DNA of 7,586 nucleotides from assembly GCF_003334815.1 (NCBI RefSeq), contig NZ_QOWO01000067.1; one strand, given 5' to 3'. The DNA is from Escherichia coli (GTDB taxonomy: Bacteria; Pseudomonadota; Gammaproteobacteria; Enterobacterales; Enterobacteriaceae). The notes beneath the pieces were generated by a model. It did no database searches. It was not told where the DNA came from and saw nothing but the letters and a program-made list of their open reading frames with translations. The translations under genes were made by a program, and so were the position numbers. This document shows positions 1-7,586 of the stretch, piece after piece (the first letter of the stretch is position 1; every line of letters begins with the position of its first letter).

Positions 1-156
1 TTAATGAAAACACTCGATGAACTGAACCAGTCGGGAAAAGGGAAAGTGTGGTTTGCGGGGCGAGGAACCGCCCCTGAATGGCAAATGAAACGGGAAATGT
101 TGAGTCAGTGTTATACAACTAAATGGCGAGATATTCCCCTGGCCAGGCTGGGTTAG
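1..156 (+). CDS. Possible 3' end of an unidentified gene entering from upstream of the window (partial)
   Basis: Frame 1 is open from position 1 to TAG at 154..156, reading ...GKGKVWFAGRGTAPEWQMKREMLSQCYTTKWRDIPLARLG*. It ends 1 nt before the convergent parR-like stop at 158..160. Too short for the supplied ORF track; I do not recognise the family. Confidence 0.25.
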   Translation, partial: LMKTLDELNQSGKGKVWFAGRGTAPEWQMKREMLSQCYTTKWRDIPLARLG

Positions 157-157
157 T

Positions 158-574
158 TCAGTCATCTCCGAACATATTTTCAGCGTTTCTTCTGGTCTGG
201 TCTTCACCGTCATTTCTCGACAGACTCTGCTCTGTAAGAGGAGTACTGCAATCCACAGACGTATGGAGACCAGATTGTTTTTCCAGTAATTCAAGCAATT
301 TCTTTTCAACCGAAAAAGCACCTGGTATTACGCTGGAAATCACCTTATTAATATCATCCAGAGTCGTATTTTCTGTCAGTAACTCCGATATCAGCAAAGG
401 AAGACGTTTATCTATAGCTGCAAACGCCGCACCAGTAACTAACATCGCGCGCATGAAACGTCCCCGCTCCTTCAGTTTTTCATTTGCAATGAGCTCATCT
501 GCTATCTTATCTCCTGTCCGTTCATCCGGGAAAAGTTCAAATGAGCAGCGTCTGGATTTATTTTCATCACTCAT
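158..574 (-). CDS. parR: ParR/StbB-like centromere-binding adaptor of a type II (actin-type) partition system
   Basis: 138-aa ORF. The N-terminal region (RRCSFELFPDERTGDKIADEL...ERGRFMRAMLVTGAAF...LLISELLTENTTLDDINKVI) follows the pattern I associate with the ParR family N-terminal ribbon-helix-helix, and it has an acidic C-terminal tail. ATG at 574..572 overlaps the parM stop (ATGAGTGA, 8-nt overlap). GGTGGT-type Shine-Dalgarno about 9 nt upstream. Confidence 0.8.
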   Translation of the reverse strand: MSDENKSRRCSFELFPDERTGDKIADELIANEKLKERGRFMRAMLVTGAAFAAIDKRLPLLISELLTENTTLDDINKVISSVIPGAFSVEKKLLELLEKQSGLHTSVDCSTPLTEQSLSRNDGEDQTRRNAENMFGDD

Positions 575-1547
575 TAGTCACACCACCTTTCATTTTTATC
601 ATTCCCATGACTAAATCAAACTGCGGGGATGAGCTCAGATAAAAGCGCTCATCAGGAACCTTAGTCAGGTTCTTCACAGCCTCGGCCACAATTTCAGCCC
701 CACCACCAACACACATTACATGTGTATAGTCGGTGAAACGGCTGATGACATCATTAACTCGTTTAATAAGCAACTTCTGCCGTTCATTGATAACATTAAT
801 GATAGACTCACGCTGTTCAGCATTATAAATGCGACGGGAAAGGTAGTCAGGTTCATTACGGTGCACAATGATATTGTCAGCCTGGAATGAGCTCACTCTT
901 GTATTAGCATGTACAGCCATCTGTTCCTTAACCCCGGATGTAATCAGGGACACGCCGATATTCGGATCACACCAGGTTTTTGTAATCCCTGTCATTTTGC
1001 TACGAACATGCGACACATCAAGAGTTGTACCACCGAGATCTACGATCAAAAGGGATTCATCATCCTCAAGCCCCGCAAGAACACTGAAACCAGCGGGAAT
1101 ACTTTCAGGAAGAACGGAAACACTGCGAATAACAAATGCATCACTCCCCTGCACCCGTACTTCACGCATCACATTTTTTTTCTTTCTTTCAATGTTTTGC
1201 TTATTTTTCTGATTGTTGGCGTCAAGGTATTCAGAGATCGGCAATGTGACGATGACATCAACAGGCTGCGCTTTCAGGCCGGTCTGCTGTAGCGCATGCT
1301 GAATGGCCACAACATTCACATCACTGTACTGATAGCGTGTTTCAGTCGTTACGACAGCATCAGCACTTAATGGATCAAATGAAAACTTCTCGCCGTCGAT
1401 CTCGTAATTAGCCGGAGCAGCATCATCCAGTAAACTAAAAGACCATTCCGGTTTAAAGCTGTTAGGGCTGATTAACGTTTTCACGTCACCATCCTCCAAC
1501 CAGGCAAGTTTAATGTTGGTAGAACCATCATCAATAAAGATTTTCAT
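567..1547 (-). CDS. parM: ParM/StbA-like actin-type plasmid segregation ATPase
   Basis: The track ORF 567..1616 contains MKIFIDDGSTNIKLAW..., the phosphate-1 DxGxT/S motif typical of the ParM/StbA N-terminus, plus VDLGGTTLDV (phosphate 2) and CVGGGAEIV (adenosine motif). I place the start at the ATG 1547..1545 (M24 of the track ORF), which has GGAG 8 nt upstream and gives 326 aa, a typical ParM length. The stop overlaps the parR start. Confidence 0.9.
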   Translation of the reverse strand: MKIFIDDGSTNIKLAWLEDGDVKTLISPNSFKPEWSFSLLDDAAPANYEIDGEKFSFDPLSADAVVTTETRYQYSDVNVVAIQHALQQTGLKAQPVDVIVTLPISEYLDANNQKNKQNIERKKKNVMREVRVQGSDAFVIRSVSVLPESIPAGFSVLAGLEDDESLLIVDLGGTTLDVSHVRSKMTGITKTWCDPNIGVSLITSGVKEQMAVHANTRVSSFQADNIIVHRNEPDYLSRRIYNAEQRESIINVINERQKLLIKRVNDVISRFTDYTHVMCVGGGAEIVAEAVKNLTKVPDERFYLSSSPQFDLVMGMIKMKGGVTNE

Positions 1548-1960
1548 AACCAGTCTCCGTTGCTCATAAACAAATAGAAAAAACAAACATGCTTCATACA
1601 TGCAATGTATATTCAATTATAATGAAAAAACGGTCTTTCTGAAAGGACAAATGCAACATAAAAACACGATAAATTGCATGTACATTGTACACACAACTTT
1701 AAGACCAGAGGAAATCATAGATACAAAAACATTATGAAGGTTATATGTGACACATAAATGCAATATAAAAACATCGTGGACATCATGGTTCAGGTTAAGG
1801 GAAAAGGAATGAAATGGTGAAACTGAGAGGAAAGGAAAGCGGTGACGAATCATGTCACCATAAACAGAAAGATGTCTAATGGGGACTCTTTAGGTACGTG
1901 AAGAATCCCCATAACGCATTTAAAAGACACACATCAGATACCCTTAAGGTATCCGATAGT
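1548..1960. promoter_or_regulatory. parC-like centromere/promoter region upstream of parMR, also the downstream flank of the ParA/RHH pair
   Basis: AT-rich non-coding stretch with repeated ATGCAA/TTGCAT units (around 1600, 1650, 1673, 1758). The unit AAATGCAA(C/T)ATAAAAACA occurs twice (about 1649..1667 and 1756..1774). Palindromes: ATACATgcaATGTAT near 1596..1610, GGTGAC-N7-GTCACC at 1839..1857, GATACC-cttaa-GGTATC at 1937..1953. The position matches a type II centromere/promoter; exact binding sites are not determined. Confidence 0.55.
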
Positions 1961-2355: not shown

Positions 2356-3000
2356 TTACTGTTTGTTATTTTCAATCAGATGATTGATTTCTTCGATCAG
2401 GGCAATAACTTCCTTACCTCCTGCCGAATAGCGCCCATGAACAGACTCAGTGATTCCCATCCCAGTCTCAATGACATCCTCAAATTCTGCACGAGCAGAA
2501 ATGCGGCTCTTCATCAGCTTCAGATGTTTGAACGATGGCAGGATTGCATCAAGCTTAGGGAATTTCTTCTTGTTAGGATTAACTTTACAGAGATACAGGT
2601 GAGCAGTTATATCGGTCCCCATGATAGAGCTGATTTCGTCCAGTACTCCATCAAAATGCATCAAACCAATACGTTCAGTCAGGGAGTCTTTTGAAGGGAC
2701 AATAACGCAGTCTGCAAAGGCAATCGCAGTACGGGTAAGATCTGAGTCAAATCCCCCACAGTCAATAAGTAACGTCTTATCGCTGTTCTTGTAGGGAGTC
2801 ATAATTTCGATTAACTCATCCACTGTTTTGGGTACTTTCACGGAAATTTCTTTTCCTTCAGGTCTCAGCCCCAGAATGATAGAAAGCCCGGTATGAGTAT
2901 CCAGATCAACTGTATCAGACTTCATTTCACCAACAATGTTTACGGATGAAGTTGTCTTACCCACACCACCTTTGGGATGCGTATTAGCAATAACAGGCAT
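2356..3000 (-). CDS. parA: Small ParA-family (ParF-like, type Ib) deviant Walker-A partition ATPase
   Basis: Deviant Walker A KGGVGKTT near the N-terminus, LLIDCGG and a VIVP Walker-B-like hydrophobic strand. Start placed at ATG 3000..2998 (M23 of track ORF 2356..3066), with GGAG 7 nt upstream, giving 214 aa, the size class of type Ib ParA/ParF proteins that lack an N-terminal HTH. Confidence 0.8.
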   Translation of the reverse strand: MPVIANTHPKGGVGKTTSSVNIVGEMKSDTVDLDTHTGLSIILGLRPEGKEISVKVPKTVDELIEIMTPYKNSDKTLLIDCGGFDSDLTRTAIAFADCVIVPSKDSLTERIGLMHFDGVLDEISSIMGTDITAHLYLCKVNPNKKKFPKLDAILPSFKHLKLMKSRISARAEFEDVIETGMGITESVHGRYSAGGKEVIALIEEINHLIENNKQ

Positions 3001-3179
3001 AGTGTATCTCCAGAATCCACATGTAATACCCATAAAGACCCCATAAGACACCTTTCGGATATCCAAGAGGTACTCAATAGATGTTTTTTTACTCTATACC
3101 GGTCCTGCATGTCAACAGAATATGAAATACCGATAATATATCCATGAGATATCCGAAAGGGATTTAAAAAAGTCAGAGC
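3001..3179. promoter_or_regulatory. Promoter/operator region upstream of the ParA-like gene
   Basis: Non-coding gap between the recombinase stop (3180) and the ParA-like start (3000). Contains the palindrome GGATATCC (3057..3064) and GATATCC (3148..3154), related to GGATAC/GATACC motifs on the other side of the operon. Confidence 0.4.
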
Positions 3180-3959
3180 TTATGGAATTCTTTTGAGCAT
3201 AGACACCGCATCGGACTCAGGCATCGAAAACTGCACCCGGTGCCGTGCAGCCACATCCAGTGCAAACACCTTCGTGTAGACCTCCGTTGAGCTGATGGAC
3301 TTATGCCCCATCAGGCTCTGCAGGACCTTCAGCGGTATACCGGCATACAGCATATGCATCGCATAGGAATGGCGGAACGTATGTGGCGTGACCGGGACAG
3401 AGAACGTCACACCGTCAGCGGCAGCGGCGGCAACCGCCTCCCCAATCCAGGTCCTGACCGTTCTGTCCGTCACTTCCCATATCCGCGCTTTCTCTGTCCT
3501 GCCTGTTCGTTTATTACGCCGTTCCATGGGGATTTTCAGTGTGGCCACCATCGTCTGCAGCTGGCTGACGTACCAGGCGTCGGAGAGCGGAACCAGCCGG
3601 TGAGTCTGCTGACCGGCGGGCATTCTTCCTGCCGTCCTGGCGGCTTTTTCCGTCCGTTGTTTCAGGGTCGCAAGCTGCACAAACGGATACGGAGGCGTGA
3701 GCGAAAAATCCCCCCGCGTCAGCGCCAGTGCTTCATTAATGCGCGCACCGGTGTTCCACAGTGTGGCCAGCAGCATCTTGCGGCGCAGATCCGGGACGTA
3801 ATGGAGCAGGGCGCTCACTTCAGGGGCCAGCAGGTATTTGGGCAGTTCATCATGAACCATCGACATCTGGCGGAGTGCCAGCGCTGCCGGATAATCGATG
3901 GCAACAGGAAGCTGAGCGGCATCCCGGGCATGGTGGATCGGTGCCGGCAGGTGCTGCAT
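3180..3959 (-). CDS. Tyrosine site-specific recombinase (plasmid resolvase/integrase family, ResD-like)
   Basis: The C-terminal region carries the tyrosine-recombinase box II signature HTFRHSYAMHML...LMGHKSISSTEVYTKV (His-x-x-Arg, then His, then the catalytic Tyr), and an ARINEAL-type box I arginine sits earlier. Start placed at ATG 3959..3957 (M52 of track ORF 3180..4112), 1 nt after the stop of the upstream ORF, giving 259 aa. Overall it resembles plasmid multimer-resolution recombinases of F-like/I-like plasmids, as recalled from memory, not searched. Confidence 0.85.
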   Translation of the reverse strand: MQHLPAPIHHARDAAQLPVAIDYPAALALRQMSMVHDELPKYLLAPEVSALLHYVPDLRRKMLLATLWNTGARINEALALTRGDFSLTPPYPFVQLATLKQRTEKAARTAGRMPAGQQTHRLVPLSDAWYVSQLQTMVATLKIPMERRNKRTGRTEKARIWEVTDRTVRTWIGEAVAAAAADGVTFSVPVTPHTFRHSYAMHMLYAGIPLKVLQSLMGHKSISSTEVYTKVFALDVAARHRVQFSMPESDAVSMLKRIP

Positions 3960-3960
3960 A

Positions 3961-4374
3961 TCAGTGTTCACTCCACGGGGAAACGTCGGGCAGGTTTTCC
4001 ACAACCCTGTATTTTCCCGGATAACGGAGCTGGTTACCGCCACGCGTCCGGACGGTGACAACAAAACCCCCGCCCTGGTTGTTTTCGGGGAGCAGGCGAT
4101 CGCACTGCTCACTCAGCATGTGGATCACAAACGGCGCATCGCTGCCGTCTTCAAATATCAGTTCCAGCGCATCGCGGCCATCCAGCGTTCCCTTACTGAT
4201 GATGACGTACTCAGCCCCCCGCATCTCCCTGAGTAAATGTTTTGCCGCATCCGGGACAAGCAGCCTGGCTTCGCCGGCATTCCAGCTGAGGTAGACATAT
4301 CCGGCCTGCGCCTGTACAGACTGCCAGTAATCCGTTCTGGCGACAGCCTGACCTTCATTCTCAATAAAAAACAT
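3961..4374 (-). CDS. Hypothetical 137-aa protein, first gene of the recombinase operon
   Basis: Track ORF 3961..4413. I start it at ATG 4374..4372 (MFFIENEGQAV...) because of a strong AAGGAG 8 nt upstream. The stop TGA at 3963..3961 is separated by 1 nt from the recombinase ATG (TGATATG). No recognisable catalytic motif or membrane segments; family not recognised. Confidence 0.6.
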   Translation of the reverse strand: MFFIENEGQAVARTDYWQSVQAQAGYVYLSWNAGEARLLVPDAAKHLLREMRGAEYVIISKGTLDGRDALELIFEDGSDAPFVIHMLSEQCDRLLPENNQGGGFVVTVRTRGGNQLRYPGKYRVVENLPDVSPWSEH

Positions 4375-4410
4375 GGGTGACTCCTTTTTTCTTTTCCGGG
4401 CAGGGACGGT

Positions 4411-4495: not shown

Positions 4496-4811
4496 AAGCA
4501 TCCATATAACCACGCCGTTAAATTACCGGAGAGCCGTTTCCGTCAGATCCGACTTTTCGGAATATCACAACTTTCCGGAAGTGTACCACGCTGAGGAAAT
4601 AATCATATCGCTGTTTTCCGCCCCTGCGCGGCGCATCACAGGTCAGGGAGATGACACAACATATAGTGTCATCAGCAGCTGAATCCGGCACCACATGTTG
4701 TGCTGACGGGAGGTGGCGTTGTGTGGGGGGAGAAGAAGATCCGTAACCGCCGGAAACCGGATCTGCGCGGCGGGAAACGGGCAAGTGATATGGTAATTGA
4801 GCAATACACAC

Positions 4812-4867
4812 AAAATCATATCAGATATGATTTTCATCATTGATGATAGAACCATATCTGATATTAT
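4812..4867. promoter_or_regulatory. Palindromic operator array and candidate sigma70 promoter for the + strand operon starting at 4943
   Basis: Perfect 23-bp palindrome AAAATCATATC-A-GATATGATTTT (4812..4834); 13-bp palindrome TCATCA-T-TGATGA (4834..4846); 11-bp palindrome ATATC-T-GATAT (4854..4864). Candidate -35 TTGATG (4840..4845) and -10 TATTAT (4862..4867) with a 16-bp spacer overlap the palindromes. Confidence 0.45.
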
Positions 4868-4942
4868 AAGAAATCAGGAGCACACAAATCATACAGGATA
4901 TTATTTTTACCTGTCAGAACATTATCAGATGGAGCGTGCAGG

Positions 4943-5197
4943 ATGGATGAAGAAAGGGTGTTTTCACTCAGCTATGAGCAACTAACCCGAATAGCGGAAA
5001 AAAATATCCGTGAATGTGGGCTGGACAACCAGAGCGCCAGGTGTATCAGTGAACTGAAGGCCTCAGCTCTGCTGTGGTTGTGGTATGAACTGGCCATTCA
5101 TGGTGCGCCACAGAACAATCACGCACAGGCCCGGGAACGCATCGATACCGATTATCAGCGCCTCAAAAAACTCATCTGGTCGGAGGGTGACAGTTAA
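4943..5197 (+). CDS. Hypothetical 84-aa protein, first gene of a two-gene operon
   Basis: ATG at 4943 with GGAG about 10 nt upstream. The stop TAA (5195..5197) overlaps the next ATG (TAATG). No transmembrane segment; family not recognised. The + strand is preferred over the long antisense ORF (5063..5803, -), whose translation is an Arg/Pro/Ala-rich artefact typical of the reverse strand of a GC-rich gene. Confidence 0.55.
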   Translation: MDEERVFSLSYEQLTRIAEKNIRECGLDNQSARCISELKASALLWLWYELAIHGAPQNNHAQARERIDTDYQRLKKLIWSEGDS

Positions 5198-5787
5198 TGA
5201 CTCAGAGCCGCCGACCGTCGCCACTGCAGCGGAGAGTGCTGATTGTGCTGGCTGCGCTTGATGAAAAACGGCCGGGCCCCGTGCTGACGCGGGACCTGGA
5301 ACGGGTGCTGGAGCGAAGCGGGGAAGCCCCGGTCTACGGGCCAAACCTGCGCGCCTCCTGCCGTCGTCTGGAGGATGCCGGCTGGCTGCGTACCCTGCGC
5401 GCCCCGAACCTGCAGCTGGCAGTGGAGCTGACGGACGCCGGCCGGGCCGTGGCACAGCCTCTGCTGCTGGCAGAACAGGACCGCCTCCGGGCAGAACAGC
5501 GTGCGGCAGAAGTCGTCGTACTGCCGCTGGTCCCGGCAGCAGGTCTGCCCGCAGACGGCACTTCTGCCACTGATCTGGCGGTGGAGCTGAACGGCATAAC
5601 GTATCAGGCCTGCCGCGGGGATTTTGTGGTGCGTCTCGACGGCAGCACCTGTCTGCAGTTATGGAATAAAGAAGGCAGGGTGGTACGCCGGGAGGGCGAT
5701 CCGCTGGAAGTGGCGCAGTGGCTGCAGGCCTGTCATGACGCAGGAATAGAGGTTCGCGTACAGATAAATGAAAGTGCCGCTCCGTAA
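5197..5787 (+). CDS. Hypothetical 196-aa protein, possible winged-helix DNA-binding N-terminal domain
   Basis: ATG at 5197 overlaps the upstream stop. The N-terminal ~90 aa (LQRRVLIVLAALDEKRPGPVLTRDLERVLERSG...) has the hydrophobic/charged periodicity of a winged-helix domain (inference). The C-terminal ~100 aa is unrecognised. Markedly GC-rich compared with the rest of the window. Confidence 0.55.
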   Translation: MTQSRRPSPLQRRVLIVLAALDEKRPGPVLTRDLERVLERSGEAPVYGPNLRASCRRLEDAGWLRTLRAPNLQLAVELTDAGRAVAQPLLLAEQDRLRAEQRAAEVVVLPLVPAAGLPADGTSATDLAVELNGITYQACRGDFVVRLDGSTCLQLWNKEGRVVRREGDPLEVAQWLQACHDAGIEVRVQINESAAP

Positions 5788-5806
5788 GAACACGCCTGTG
5801 CACGGT

Positions 5807-6154
5807 TTACACATCATCCCATGGTGGCAGCCGGTTAACTTTCCTGCGCCACCAGTGGAAAGAGGCCATGCACAGTCCGAACAAAAAACCACCCGTGATA
5901 CTTATAATAATGGCCTCACCTGCCACCATTCCTGACGGCCCCCAGTAGGTAAACCACATTACACATCCCCAGGAAATGCCCCATAAGCCCCCCGTCAGCA
6001 CCGTGACCTGCCAGAACGGCATAAAGGGTAATGGCGGAAGCCGGATACCCAGCCGCCATAGAATACGCAGAAGAGGAGGGGCATAATTGCTCCGCCACAT
6101 CTTTTTGCTGTCCATCAGGGCAATGGCCCGGGCTTTTTTCTGCTCAAAGGTCAC
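5807..6154 (-). CDS. Small inner-membrane protein (two predicted transmembrane helices), function unknown
   Basis: 115-aa ORF with a GTG start at 6154..6152, preceded by GGAGG at 7-nt spacing. Two hydrophobic segments (VTVLTGGLWGISWGCVMWFTYW and MVAGEAIIISITGGFLFGLCMASFHWW) and a positively charged C-terminus. Convergent with the 196-aa gene (19-bp gap between stops). Confidence 0.55.
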   Translation of the reverse strand: MTFEQKKARAIALMDSKKMWRSNYAPPLLRILWRLGIRLPPLPFMPFWQVTVLTGGLWGISWGCVMWFTYWGPSGMVAGEAIIISITGGFLFGLCMASFHWWRRKVNRLPPWDDV

Positions 6155-6272: not shown

Positions 6273-6620
6273 ATGAAACTGGATATATCTGTAAAGTATT
6301 TACTGAAAAGCCTGATACCAAGCCTCATTATTCTTACAGTTTTTTATCTGGGATGGAAAGATAACCAGGAAAATGCAAGAATGTTTTATGCGTTCATCGG
6401 ATGCATTATCAATGCCATTACTTTTCCTTTTTCAATGAGGATAATACAGAAAATGGTAATAAAGTTTACAGGGAAAGAACTCTGGCAAAAAGACTTCTTT
6501 ACAAATCCAGTTGGCGGAAGCTTAACTGCAATATTTGAATTATTCTGTTTCGTTATATCAGTTCCTGTGGTTGCCATTTACTTAATTTTTATATTCTGCA
6601 AAGCCCTTTCAGGAAAATGA
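6273..6620 (+). CDS. Pore-forming colicin immunity protein (colicin Ia/Ib-type, three transmembrane helices)
   Basis: 115-aa protein with three hydrophobic helices (LIPSLIILTVFYLGW; MFYAFIGCIINAITFPFSM; LTAIFELFCFVISVPVVAIYLIFIFC). Convergent with the colicin gene, 17 bp from its stop, which is the arrangement known for immunity genes of pore-forming colicins. Its length matches my recollection of the Ib-type immunity protein, unverified. Confidence 0.8.
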   Translation: MKLDISVKYLLKSLIPSLIILTVFYLGWKDNQENARMFYAFIGCIINAITFPFSMRIIQKMVIKFTGKELWQKDFFTNPVGGSLTAIFELFCFVISVPVVAIYLIFIFCKALSGK

Positions 6621-6637
6621 AAGGGCATCATTATGTG

Positions 6638-7586
6638 TCAGATACCAATAAGTTTATTGACCTGCTCAATAAACTTATCATTAACAAGCGCACTCACAGC
6701 CGCCATAATAATTGCAAAACCCAGAATACCTACAGGGGTTCCCAGCATGACGGAAAACGTCCATGCTGTAACTGCTGAAGCAGCTCTTCCTGCTGCCAGT
6801 GATTCAAGTTTTACAAAAAATGGACGCCAGTTGTCCGTTTTTACAGCCTTTTGTAACTCCACAGCAACATCATAACGATCAATAACTTTTCCGGTAAAAC
6901 CAAATGCCTTACTGAACAGCTTAAAATTCTCCGCCATATGGACCTGATTAATAGCTTCCAGGGCTTTAGAAATGGCCATGCGATCTTGTATGCTATATTT
7001 CTTGTTCAGATTATTACGGAATTTATCAAAAGCGTTCAGTGCATCATCCACACTCTTAATCTGTTTCCCTTGAGATACAGAAGCCAGCTCCTTAGCAAGT
7101 TCGGATGCTTGTTTACCGAACTCATCATATATCGTTCTGTAGAAATCAGAGGTGAGTTTTATGGCATCCTTTACCATATTTATTTCATCCCTTTTTCTTT
7201 TCTCTTCCGCTATTTTCTGATTGATGTCAGCAAGCTGGCTACGGATATTCTCTTTTTCCTTCAACAGGGCATTAAGAGCGTCATTTGCATGCTTTTGTTC
7301 ATTTGTTCTGGCACTGACGTTATTTCTCGCCGAATTTATCGCAGATTCAGCAGAGGTGATTTTATTTCTGGCATCAAGCAATCGTTGCCGTAACTTATCC
7401 CATTCAGCAACTTCAGCATTATAAATTTTCTTGTCACCTTCCACATCCTCTGTAACCACCGGATTCCGGTCATTCAGAATATTGCGTTTATAGTCCAGAC
7501 CGGAATGGGTCAGAAGATAATTCAGGTTTGCACGGTTATCGATGACTGCGCTGGTTGTGATTTTTATCGTACCGGCAAATCTCGGA
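6638..7586 (-). CDS. Pore-forming colicin of the Ia/Ib family, 3' portion (channel-forming domain); 5' end lies beyond the window
   Basis: The frame is open from the window edge (first full codon 7585..7583) to TGA at 6640..6638. The track's GTG start at 7459 is an internal valine: manual translation upstream of it continues without stops (...TTSAVIDNRANLNYLLTHSGLDYKRNILNDRNPVVTEDVEGDKK...). The C-terminus (...DNWRPFFVKLESLAAGRAASAVTAWTFSVMLGTPVGILGFAIIMAAVSALVNDKFIEQVNKLIGI) has the hydrophobic helical hairpin of a colicin channel domain and matches my memory of colicin I-type sequence. Confidence 0.85.
   Translation of the reverse strand, partial: PRFAGTIKITTSAVIDNRANLNYLLTHSGLDYKRNILNDRNPVVTEDVEGDKKIYNAEVAEWDKLRQRLLDARNKITSAESAINSARNNVSARTNEQKHANDALNALLKEKENIRSQLADINQKIAEEKRKRDEINMVKDAIKLTSDFYRTIYDEFGKQASELAKELASVSQGKQIKSVDDALNAFDKFRNNLNKKYSIQDRMAISKALEAINQVHMAENFKLFSKAFGFTGKVIDRYDVAVELQKAVKTDNWRPFFVKLESLAAGRAASAVTAWTFSVMLGTPVGILGFAIIMAAVSALVNDKFIEQVNKLIGI

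Follow-up and report, generated by a model that had tools for sequence, protein, structure and literature searches.

The reading frame that enters an Escherichia coli plasmid fragment from the left is probably the 3' end of the SOS polymerase gene impB

The open reading frame that enters the left edge of the DNA analysed here, a 7,586-nt stretch from Escherichia coli (contig NZ_QOWO01000067.1; the window), is probably the end of a plasmid-borne SOS polymerase gene. We assign window positions 1–156 on the + strand to codons 374–424 and the TAG stop of impB, which would encode a 424-aa UmuC-type Y-family DNA polymerase and stand last in the LexA-repressed operon impC-impA-impB found on I-complex plasmids. 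We put the probability of this reading at about 0.9, on the strength of 100% identity to sequenced plasmids and of profile matches. Pol V, an error-prone translesion polymerase, has UmuC as its catalytic subunit. The impCAB operon was reportedly first described by Lodwick, Owen and Strike in 1990 on the IncI1 plasmid TP110. It is also carried by IncI1 plasmids of the R64/ColIb type and by the Shigella virulence plasmid. The gene has therefore long been known and is routinely annotated, and the frame is real but ordinary.

Identity of the left-edge frame

Frame 1 of the + strand is free of stops from base 1 to a TAG at 154–156, which gives 51 sense codons with the translation LMKTLDELNQSGKGKVWFAGRGTAPEWQMKREMLSQCYTTKWRDIPLARLG before the stop. 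A lone T at position 157 separates this TAG from a TCA at 158–160, which on the minus strand reads as the TGA that ends an ORF at 158–574 (junction sequence CTGGGT TAG T TCA GTCAT). The original prediction had described a frame entering from the left and ending 1 nt short of a parR-like stop, and both the geometry and the label are correct. The product of the minus-strand ORF (138 aa; WP_001278818.1, named "plasmid partitioning/stability family protein" in RefSeq) matches Pfam Plasmid_stab_B (PF10784) with E = 1.1e-27, as expected of a ParR/StbB-type partition adaptor. An NCBIfam search with ParR returned no family, so that Pfam was required for this assignment. The upstream partner of parR is parM at 567–1547 on the minus strand (locus bases 4567–5547 of NC_019131.1), which encodes an actin-like segregation ATPase (WP_000688514.1, "plasmid segregation protein ParM").

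Sequenced plasmids allow the frame to be followed beyond the window's left edge. Many Escherichia and Salmonella plasmids, typed IncI-gamma/K1, MOBP and MPF_I, match window positions 1–1600 with 100% identity. In the two identical plasmids that we examined, NC_019131.1 (L001) and NZ_CP023356.1 (L002), the window starts at locus base 4001, within a CDS at 2882–4156 that is annotated "Y-family DNA polymerase" (WP_000457524.1) and translates without interruption into 424 residues. The suggestion that the frame is part of a real gene, convergent with parR and for the most part beyond the window's edge, is borne out by this 424-codon ORF. Extending the sequence leftward and searching with the full ORF, as had been proposed, identified a Y-family polymerase of the UmuC family, ImpB. 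We looked upstream for in-frame stops or a missing start and found neither in the identical plasmids, where the ATG overlaps the stop codon of a umuD-like gene. One part of the prediction fails, namely that the gene is unannotated: RefSeq lists WP_000457524.1 as Y-family DNA polymerase/UmuC, and UniRef names the exact protein "ImpB n=174", found on at least 1000 contigs.

Profile searches agree on what the gene encodes. The full WP_000457524.1-type protein, taken from plasmids 100% identical to the window, scored 795.4 bits against the NCBIfam UmuC model NF002955 (cut-off 431) and aligned over positions 1–422 of 422. Pfam places IMS at residues 6–149 (E = 4e-40), followed by IMS_HHH, IMS_C at 245–359 (E = 2e-24) and DUF4113 at 372–419 (E = 9e-20). 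The 51 residues encoded in the window match DUF4113 (PF13438) on their own, with E = 6.7e-21 over model positions 3–49 of 51. The protein has the catalytic carboxylates D6, D101 and E102, and a clamp-type motif, QPGLF, lies at residues 358–362, just left of the window; the catalytic core and little finger are likewise encoded to the left. On family score, catalytic core, DUF4113, a UmuD-type partner gene and an SOS box, all of which were found, ImpB is classed by its sequence as a member of the UmuC subfamily. A PDB search with full ImpB matched only Pol IV/Dpo4-type cores, through residue ~330. Translesion and UV-mutagenesis activity of imp operons is reportedly treated in earlier literature (Lodwick et al. 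1990; Runyen-Janecky et al. 1999; as cited in PMC12211044 and PMC10286972).

Operon and SOS control

In the identical plasmids, impB is preceded by a DinI-like impC and a UmuD-like impA, in that order. The gene directly upstream of impB scores 143.4 bits against the NCBIfam UmuD model NF007621 (cut-off 110), and its stop overlaps the impB start codon (GCTGATG). Its product carries QAG, with an Ala-Gly cleavage site, together with GESM and VKR, which we take from knowledge of LexA and UmuD to be the motifs of the Ser-Lys dyad.

A promoter-like sequence, TTGACT-18-TAGAAT, is followed immediately by a LexA box, CTGTATATGCATACAG. This CTGT-N8-ACAG box, at locus bases 2161–2176 of NC_019131.1, is the sole such site in 9.6 kb, where 0.13 would be expected by chance, and it differs by no more than one base from the SOS box given for impCAB of pTF2, an IncI1 plasmid (PMC12211044). 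The ImpC, ImpA and ImpB proteins of pTF2 rise in an SOS-constitutive strain (PMC12211044). The operon is a conserved feature of I-complex plasmids, and its over-expression is toxic (PMC10286972).

Two minor features of the impC promoter (locus bases 2134–2176 of NC_019131.1) deserve mention. The -35 hexamer is overlapped by CTGTGTGTGGATTCAG, a further LexA-like site that is weaker than the first; read on the opposite strand, it gives the core of the second site that PMC12211044 lists for impCAB on pTF2. RefSeq records also conflict over the impC start, which is placed at locus base 2167 or 2200; the former falls within the LexA box, and the ATG at the latter comes after GGGAGATGAGAAC.

Alternative explanations

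Taken alone, the openness of the 51-codon edge frame is weak evidence and compatible with chance. When the first 600 nt were shuffled, a frame open for 51 or more codons from the edge arose in 1185 of 20000 shuffles (~6%), and the opposite strand of the window itself has a 106-codon ORF at 1–321 that we judged spurious because it is antisense to two homology-supported genes. We therefore counted frame 1 as a real gene for its homology and not for its openness. A chance frame devoid of coding function would not be expected to yield a 51-aa peptide that by itself matches a Pfam family, and the DUF4113 match rules this explanation out. The frame is also conserved in plasmids of Escherichia, Salmonella, Klebsiella and Erwinia with substitutions biased toward third codon positions, which account for 246–264 of the ~430–460 nucleotide differences over the whole gene in homologues of 67–71% identity. 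A second explanation accepts the coding sequence and takes it for an independent small gene: the ORF listing gives an ATG at window 4–6 and a frame of 50 aa ending at 156, which could be a free-standing DUF4113 peptide. This ATG is, however, the internal Met375 of the continuous 424-codon frame, which rules the small gene out; by eye, the preceding codons contain no Shine-Dalgarno-like sequence, and no such gene is annotated in any of the plasmid records inspected. We give either explanation almost no weight.

A more serious alternative is that impB is 5'-truncated or interrupted in the source of the window, so that positions 1–156 are pseudogene sequence. Remnants of this kind are common, and an impB tail alone is therefore no proof of a complete gene. 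Many IncF plasmids carry a ~680-bp piece of ~98% identity that runs from impB nucleotide 750 to the stop and on through the 3' part of parR to window position ~320; the example in the IncF plasmid NZ_CP041032.1 (1235–1913) adjoins IS1 and sitABC, and PLSDB's gene table, itself incomplete, lists no gene under it. The junction of impB tail and parR (at least 80% of window 1–400) is found in 2094 plasmid records, compared with 902 that have both the junction and a near-full-length impB. Yet the IncF remnants extend no further than window ~320, and the window itself runs on through intact parR and parM and continues to a ParA gene, an integrase gene and a colicin region, as in I-complex plasmids. 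Of the 1081 plasmid records that cover at least 80% of window 1–1600, those inspected all carry the complete 424-codon gene, and the 156 nt in the window are 100% identical to intact alleles. NZ_CP147055.1, which is colinear with the whole window, encodes an identical ImpB protein and has the full impCAB operon on the left. Judging from the identical plasmids, we consider it very probable that the source of the window carries a complete impB, and a dead remnant improbable.

The C-terminal tail

The 51 window-encoded residues lie C-terminal to the core, little finger and beta-clamp motif of the polymerase and constitute the DUF4113 extension. Two candidate binding segments can be recognised in it. 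ImpB residues 374–393 (window 1–60, +), with the sequence LMKTLDELNQSGKGKVWFAG, match the N-terminal ~30 residues of DUF4113 and form a candidate RecA-binding motif. From profile comparisons, homology has been reported between the first ~30 residues of DUF4113 and the N-terminal oligomerisation motif of RecA, and this RecA-like motif has been suggested to pick up a single RecA at the filament's 3' end (PMC6511836). Residues 397–424 (window 70–153, +), APEWQMKREMLSQCYTTKWRDIPLARLG, form by homology with UmuC a candidate ImpA' binding site of ~28 residues; in UmuC itself, the conserved final ~28 residues are reported to be where UmuD' mainly binds (PMC6511836, with reference to Jonczyk & Nowicka 1996 and Sutton & Walker 2001).

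Conservation in the tail was assessed in six homologues of 67–100% identity from E. coli, Salmonella, Klebsiella and Erwinia plasmids, among which at least 20 tail residues are invariant. In the first segment, G387, K388, W390, F391, A392 and G393 are the same in all six. The second segment has P398, E399, W400, Q401, M402, K403, R404, E405, L407 and S408, as well as T412, T413, W415, P419 and A421, each invariant in 6 of 6.

The resemblance to RecA is limited to a short motif, a helix with G-K-G at its end and then a hydrophobic strand, which reads ...LDELNQSGKGKVWFAG in ImpB and ...LGQIEKQFGKGSIMRLG in RecA. A Smith-Waterman local alignment of the ImpB motif with residues 4–31 of E. coli RecA (sequence checked against the PDB) aligned GKG and scored 31. 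Shuffled controls had a mean of 20.4 and a standard deviation of 4.2, with 125 of 5000 scoring as well (p ~0.025), so the alignment is only suggestive; BLASTP of the ImpB tail against the RecA N-terminus gave no alignment. Structural routes added little. A PDB sequence search with the tail found no solved DUF4113 structure (the best match, with E = 1.6, was irrelevant), and an AlphaFold2 model built from the 6-sequence alignment had a mean pLDDT of 45, with values below 50 for residues 330–424, and was unusable for the tail. Combining homology and conservation, we infer that residues 374–393 may bind RecA and residues ~397–424 ImpA'. In the literature surveyed, we found no report on the biochemistry of the ImpB tail.

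How the tail might act can be sketched from what is observed, namely the identity and domain content of the gene, its operon and the LexA box, combined with homology to E. coli UmuC. DNA damage would lead to cleavage of LexA and expression of impCAB. ImpA would then cleave itself on the RecA filament to yield ImpA', a dimer of which could dock on the final ~28 residues of ImpB. The helix-strand motif that precedes them would mimic the RecA N-terminus and remove a single RecA-ATP from the filament's 3' end, and this captured RecA-ATP would activate the polymerase.

Comparison with known systems

The closest known system is the ImpB of impCAB itself. The protein bears the same UniRef name, the operon has the same order and occurs in the same plasmid group, and the LexA box is the near-match to that of pTF2 noted above; in these features we see no substantive difference. 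E. coli UmuC and the plasmid homologues MucB, SamB and RumB/RulB share with ImpB the Y-family core with D6/D101/E102, the little finger, a QxxLF clamp motif, the DUF4113 tail, a self-cleaving UmuD-type partner and LexA control. Unlike E. coli UmuC, ImpB is plasmid-borne and its operon has a third gene, the DinI-like impC.

The facts about impCAB have already been described, and the identification has little import beyond bookkeeping. The operon is of some practical interest as the source of an error-prone polymerase, toxic if over-expressed, on plasmids that spread antibiotic resistance (PMC10286972).

The junction with the partition genes

The two convergent genes leave almost nothing between them in which transcription could end. 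A scan with a terminator consensus found no site at the junction or past the end of impB on the + strand; region-wide, five terminator-like sites were present where 4.0 would be expected by chance. Predicted folds of the junction were no better than those of shuffled sequences on either strand (z = -1.34 and -0.22), and Rfam at gathering thresholds gave no match in the window. A perfect 10-nt palindrome, CCTGGCCAGG, lies at window 137–146 in the impB tail, a few codons 5' of the stop; no T-run comes after it, and it is not a terminator. Since the single-base spacer has no room for an intergenic terminator and no terminator-like site is present, transcripts would end within the opposing gene, end via Rho, or not be terminated there at all. 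With one base between the stops and no detectable terminator, SOS-driven antisense transcription might run into parR and parM, and parMR transcription into impB, and so couple the SOS response to partition and copy control. We regard this coupling, jointly with the altered ImpA' binding considered below, as a long shot.

The end of impB is also where plasmids of this group change partners. I-complex plasmids with an unrelated ParMR module are near-identical to the window until nucleotide ~99 and then diverge, and codon comparison, sliding identity and the ends of megablast matches place a putative recombination (mosaic) boundary at window 99–156. Between NC_019131.1 and one such plasmid, NZ_OW967977.1, impB has 0 differences in codons 1–314, six synonymous differences in codons 315–384 and 13 changed codons in 407–423. 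Sliding identity between the two is at least 58/60 up to window nucleotide 81, 42/60 at 82–141 and ~24/60 beyond, and megablast matches stop at window 99 (query position 1218). The partition proteins of NZ_OW967977.1 have little in common with those of the window, with 34 of 141 residues identical in ParR (24%) and 119 of 328 in ParM (36%). Because the match ends at nucleotide ~99 and the codon changes follow, the last ~18 codons of impB appear to travel with the partition module, and exchange of the module seems to use the end of impB as one crossover site.

The diverged tail of NZ_OW967977.1 still codes for a UmuC-like end, ...SPSYTTQWTEIPIASF. There are accordingly two C-terminal ImpB allele types, ...SQCYTTKWRDIPLARLG in the window and ...SPSYTTQWTEIPIASF in the other group, each accompanied by a different ParMR module, and the breakpoint in the end of impB may serve as a marker for the ParMR module of an IncI plasmid. 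A third arrangement occurs in NZ_CP129264.1, which has a co-directional ParA-type module in the same position; its impB also matches the window to nucleotide ~99 and then diverges. In IncF and Klebsiella homologues, convergent parB genes follow after 81–135 nt.

The window's own allele has an unusual pair of residues in this region. Positions 121–126 encode Q409-C410, where five homologues (67–98% identity) have Pro-Ser or Pro-Ala after the invariant L407-S408. The pair sits in the part of the tail predicted to bind the UmuD'-type subunit. Chimeric tails created by exchange of the impB end and par genes, such as the one with Q409-C410, could conceivably differ in ImpA' binding, an idea to which, taken together with SOS-partition coupling, we attach very little credence.

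Plasmid backbone

Knowing the gene helps to type the backbone, as had been anticipated: the arrangement of impCAB and parMR is typical of I-complex plasmids (PMC10286972). We type the window as the backbone of an I-complex (IncI1/I-gamma/K/B/O) conjugative plasmid, by way of the matching plasmids; the replicon itself lies outside the window. All top matches are typed IncI-gamma/K1 or IncI1/B/O, MOBP and MPF_I and have the same gene order, in which impCAB is followed by convergent parMR, ParA, a resolvase/integrase and colicin Ia/Ib-type genes. The result places the window between the SOS mutagenesis operon and a region of partition, resolution and colicin genes.

Only NZ_CP147055.1 (IncI1/B/O, 98.0% identity) matches all 7586 nt in one colinear piece. 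The other best whole-window matches (98.6%) are split into two or three pieces by insertions of ~3.5–6.6 kb, which in some of the matching plasmids include ISEcp1-blaCMY-2 and a DUF4238 gene.

Base composition varies along the window. Blocks rich in G+C (0.56–0.69) occupy positions 3201–4400 and 5201–6000, and elsewhere the value is ~0.36–0.45. The blocks cover a tyrosine recombinase/integrase gene with a neighbouring ORF and a 196-aa hypothetical ORF at 5197–5787, which suggests that parts of the backbone have different origins. Toward the right edge, RefSeq naming gives a colicin immunity gene at 6273–6620 (+), and adjoining it is the 3' part of a colicin Ia/Ib-type pore-forming gene at 6638–7586 (-), which leaves the window there.
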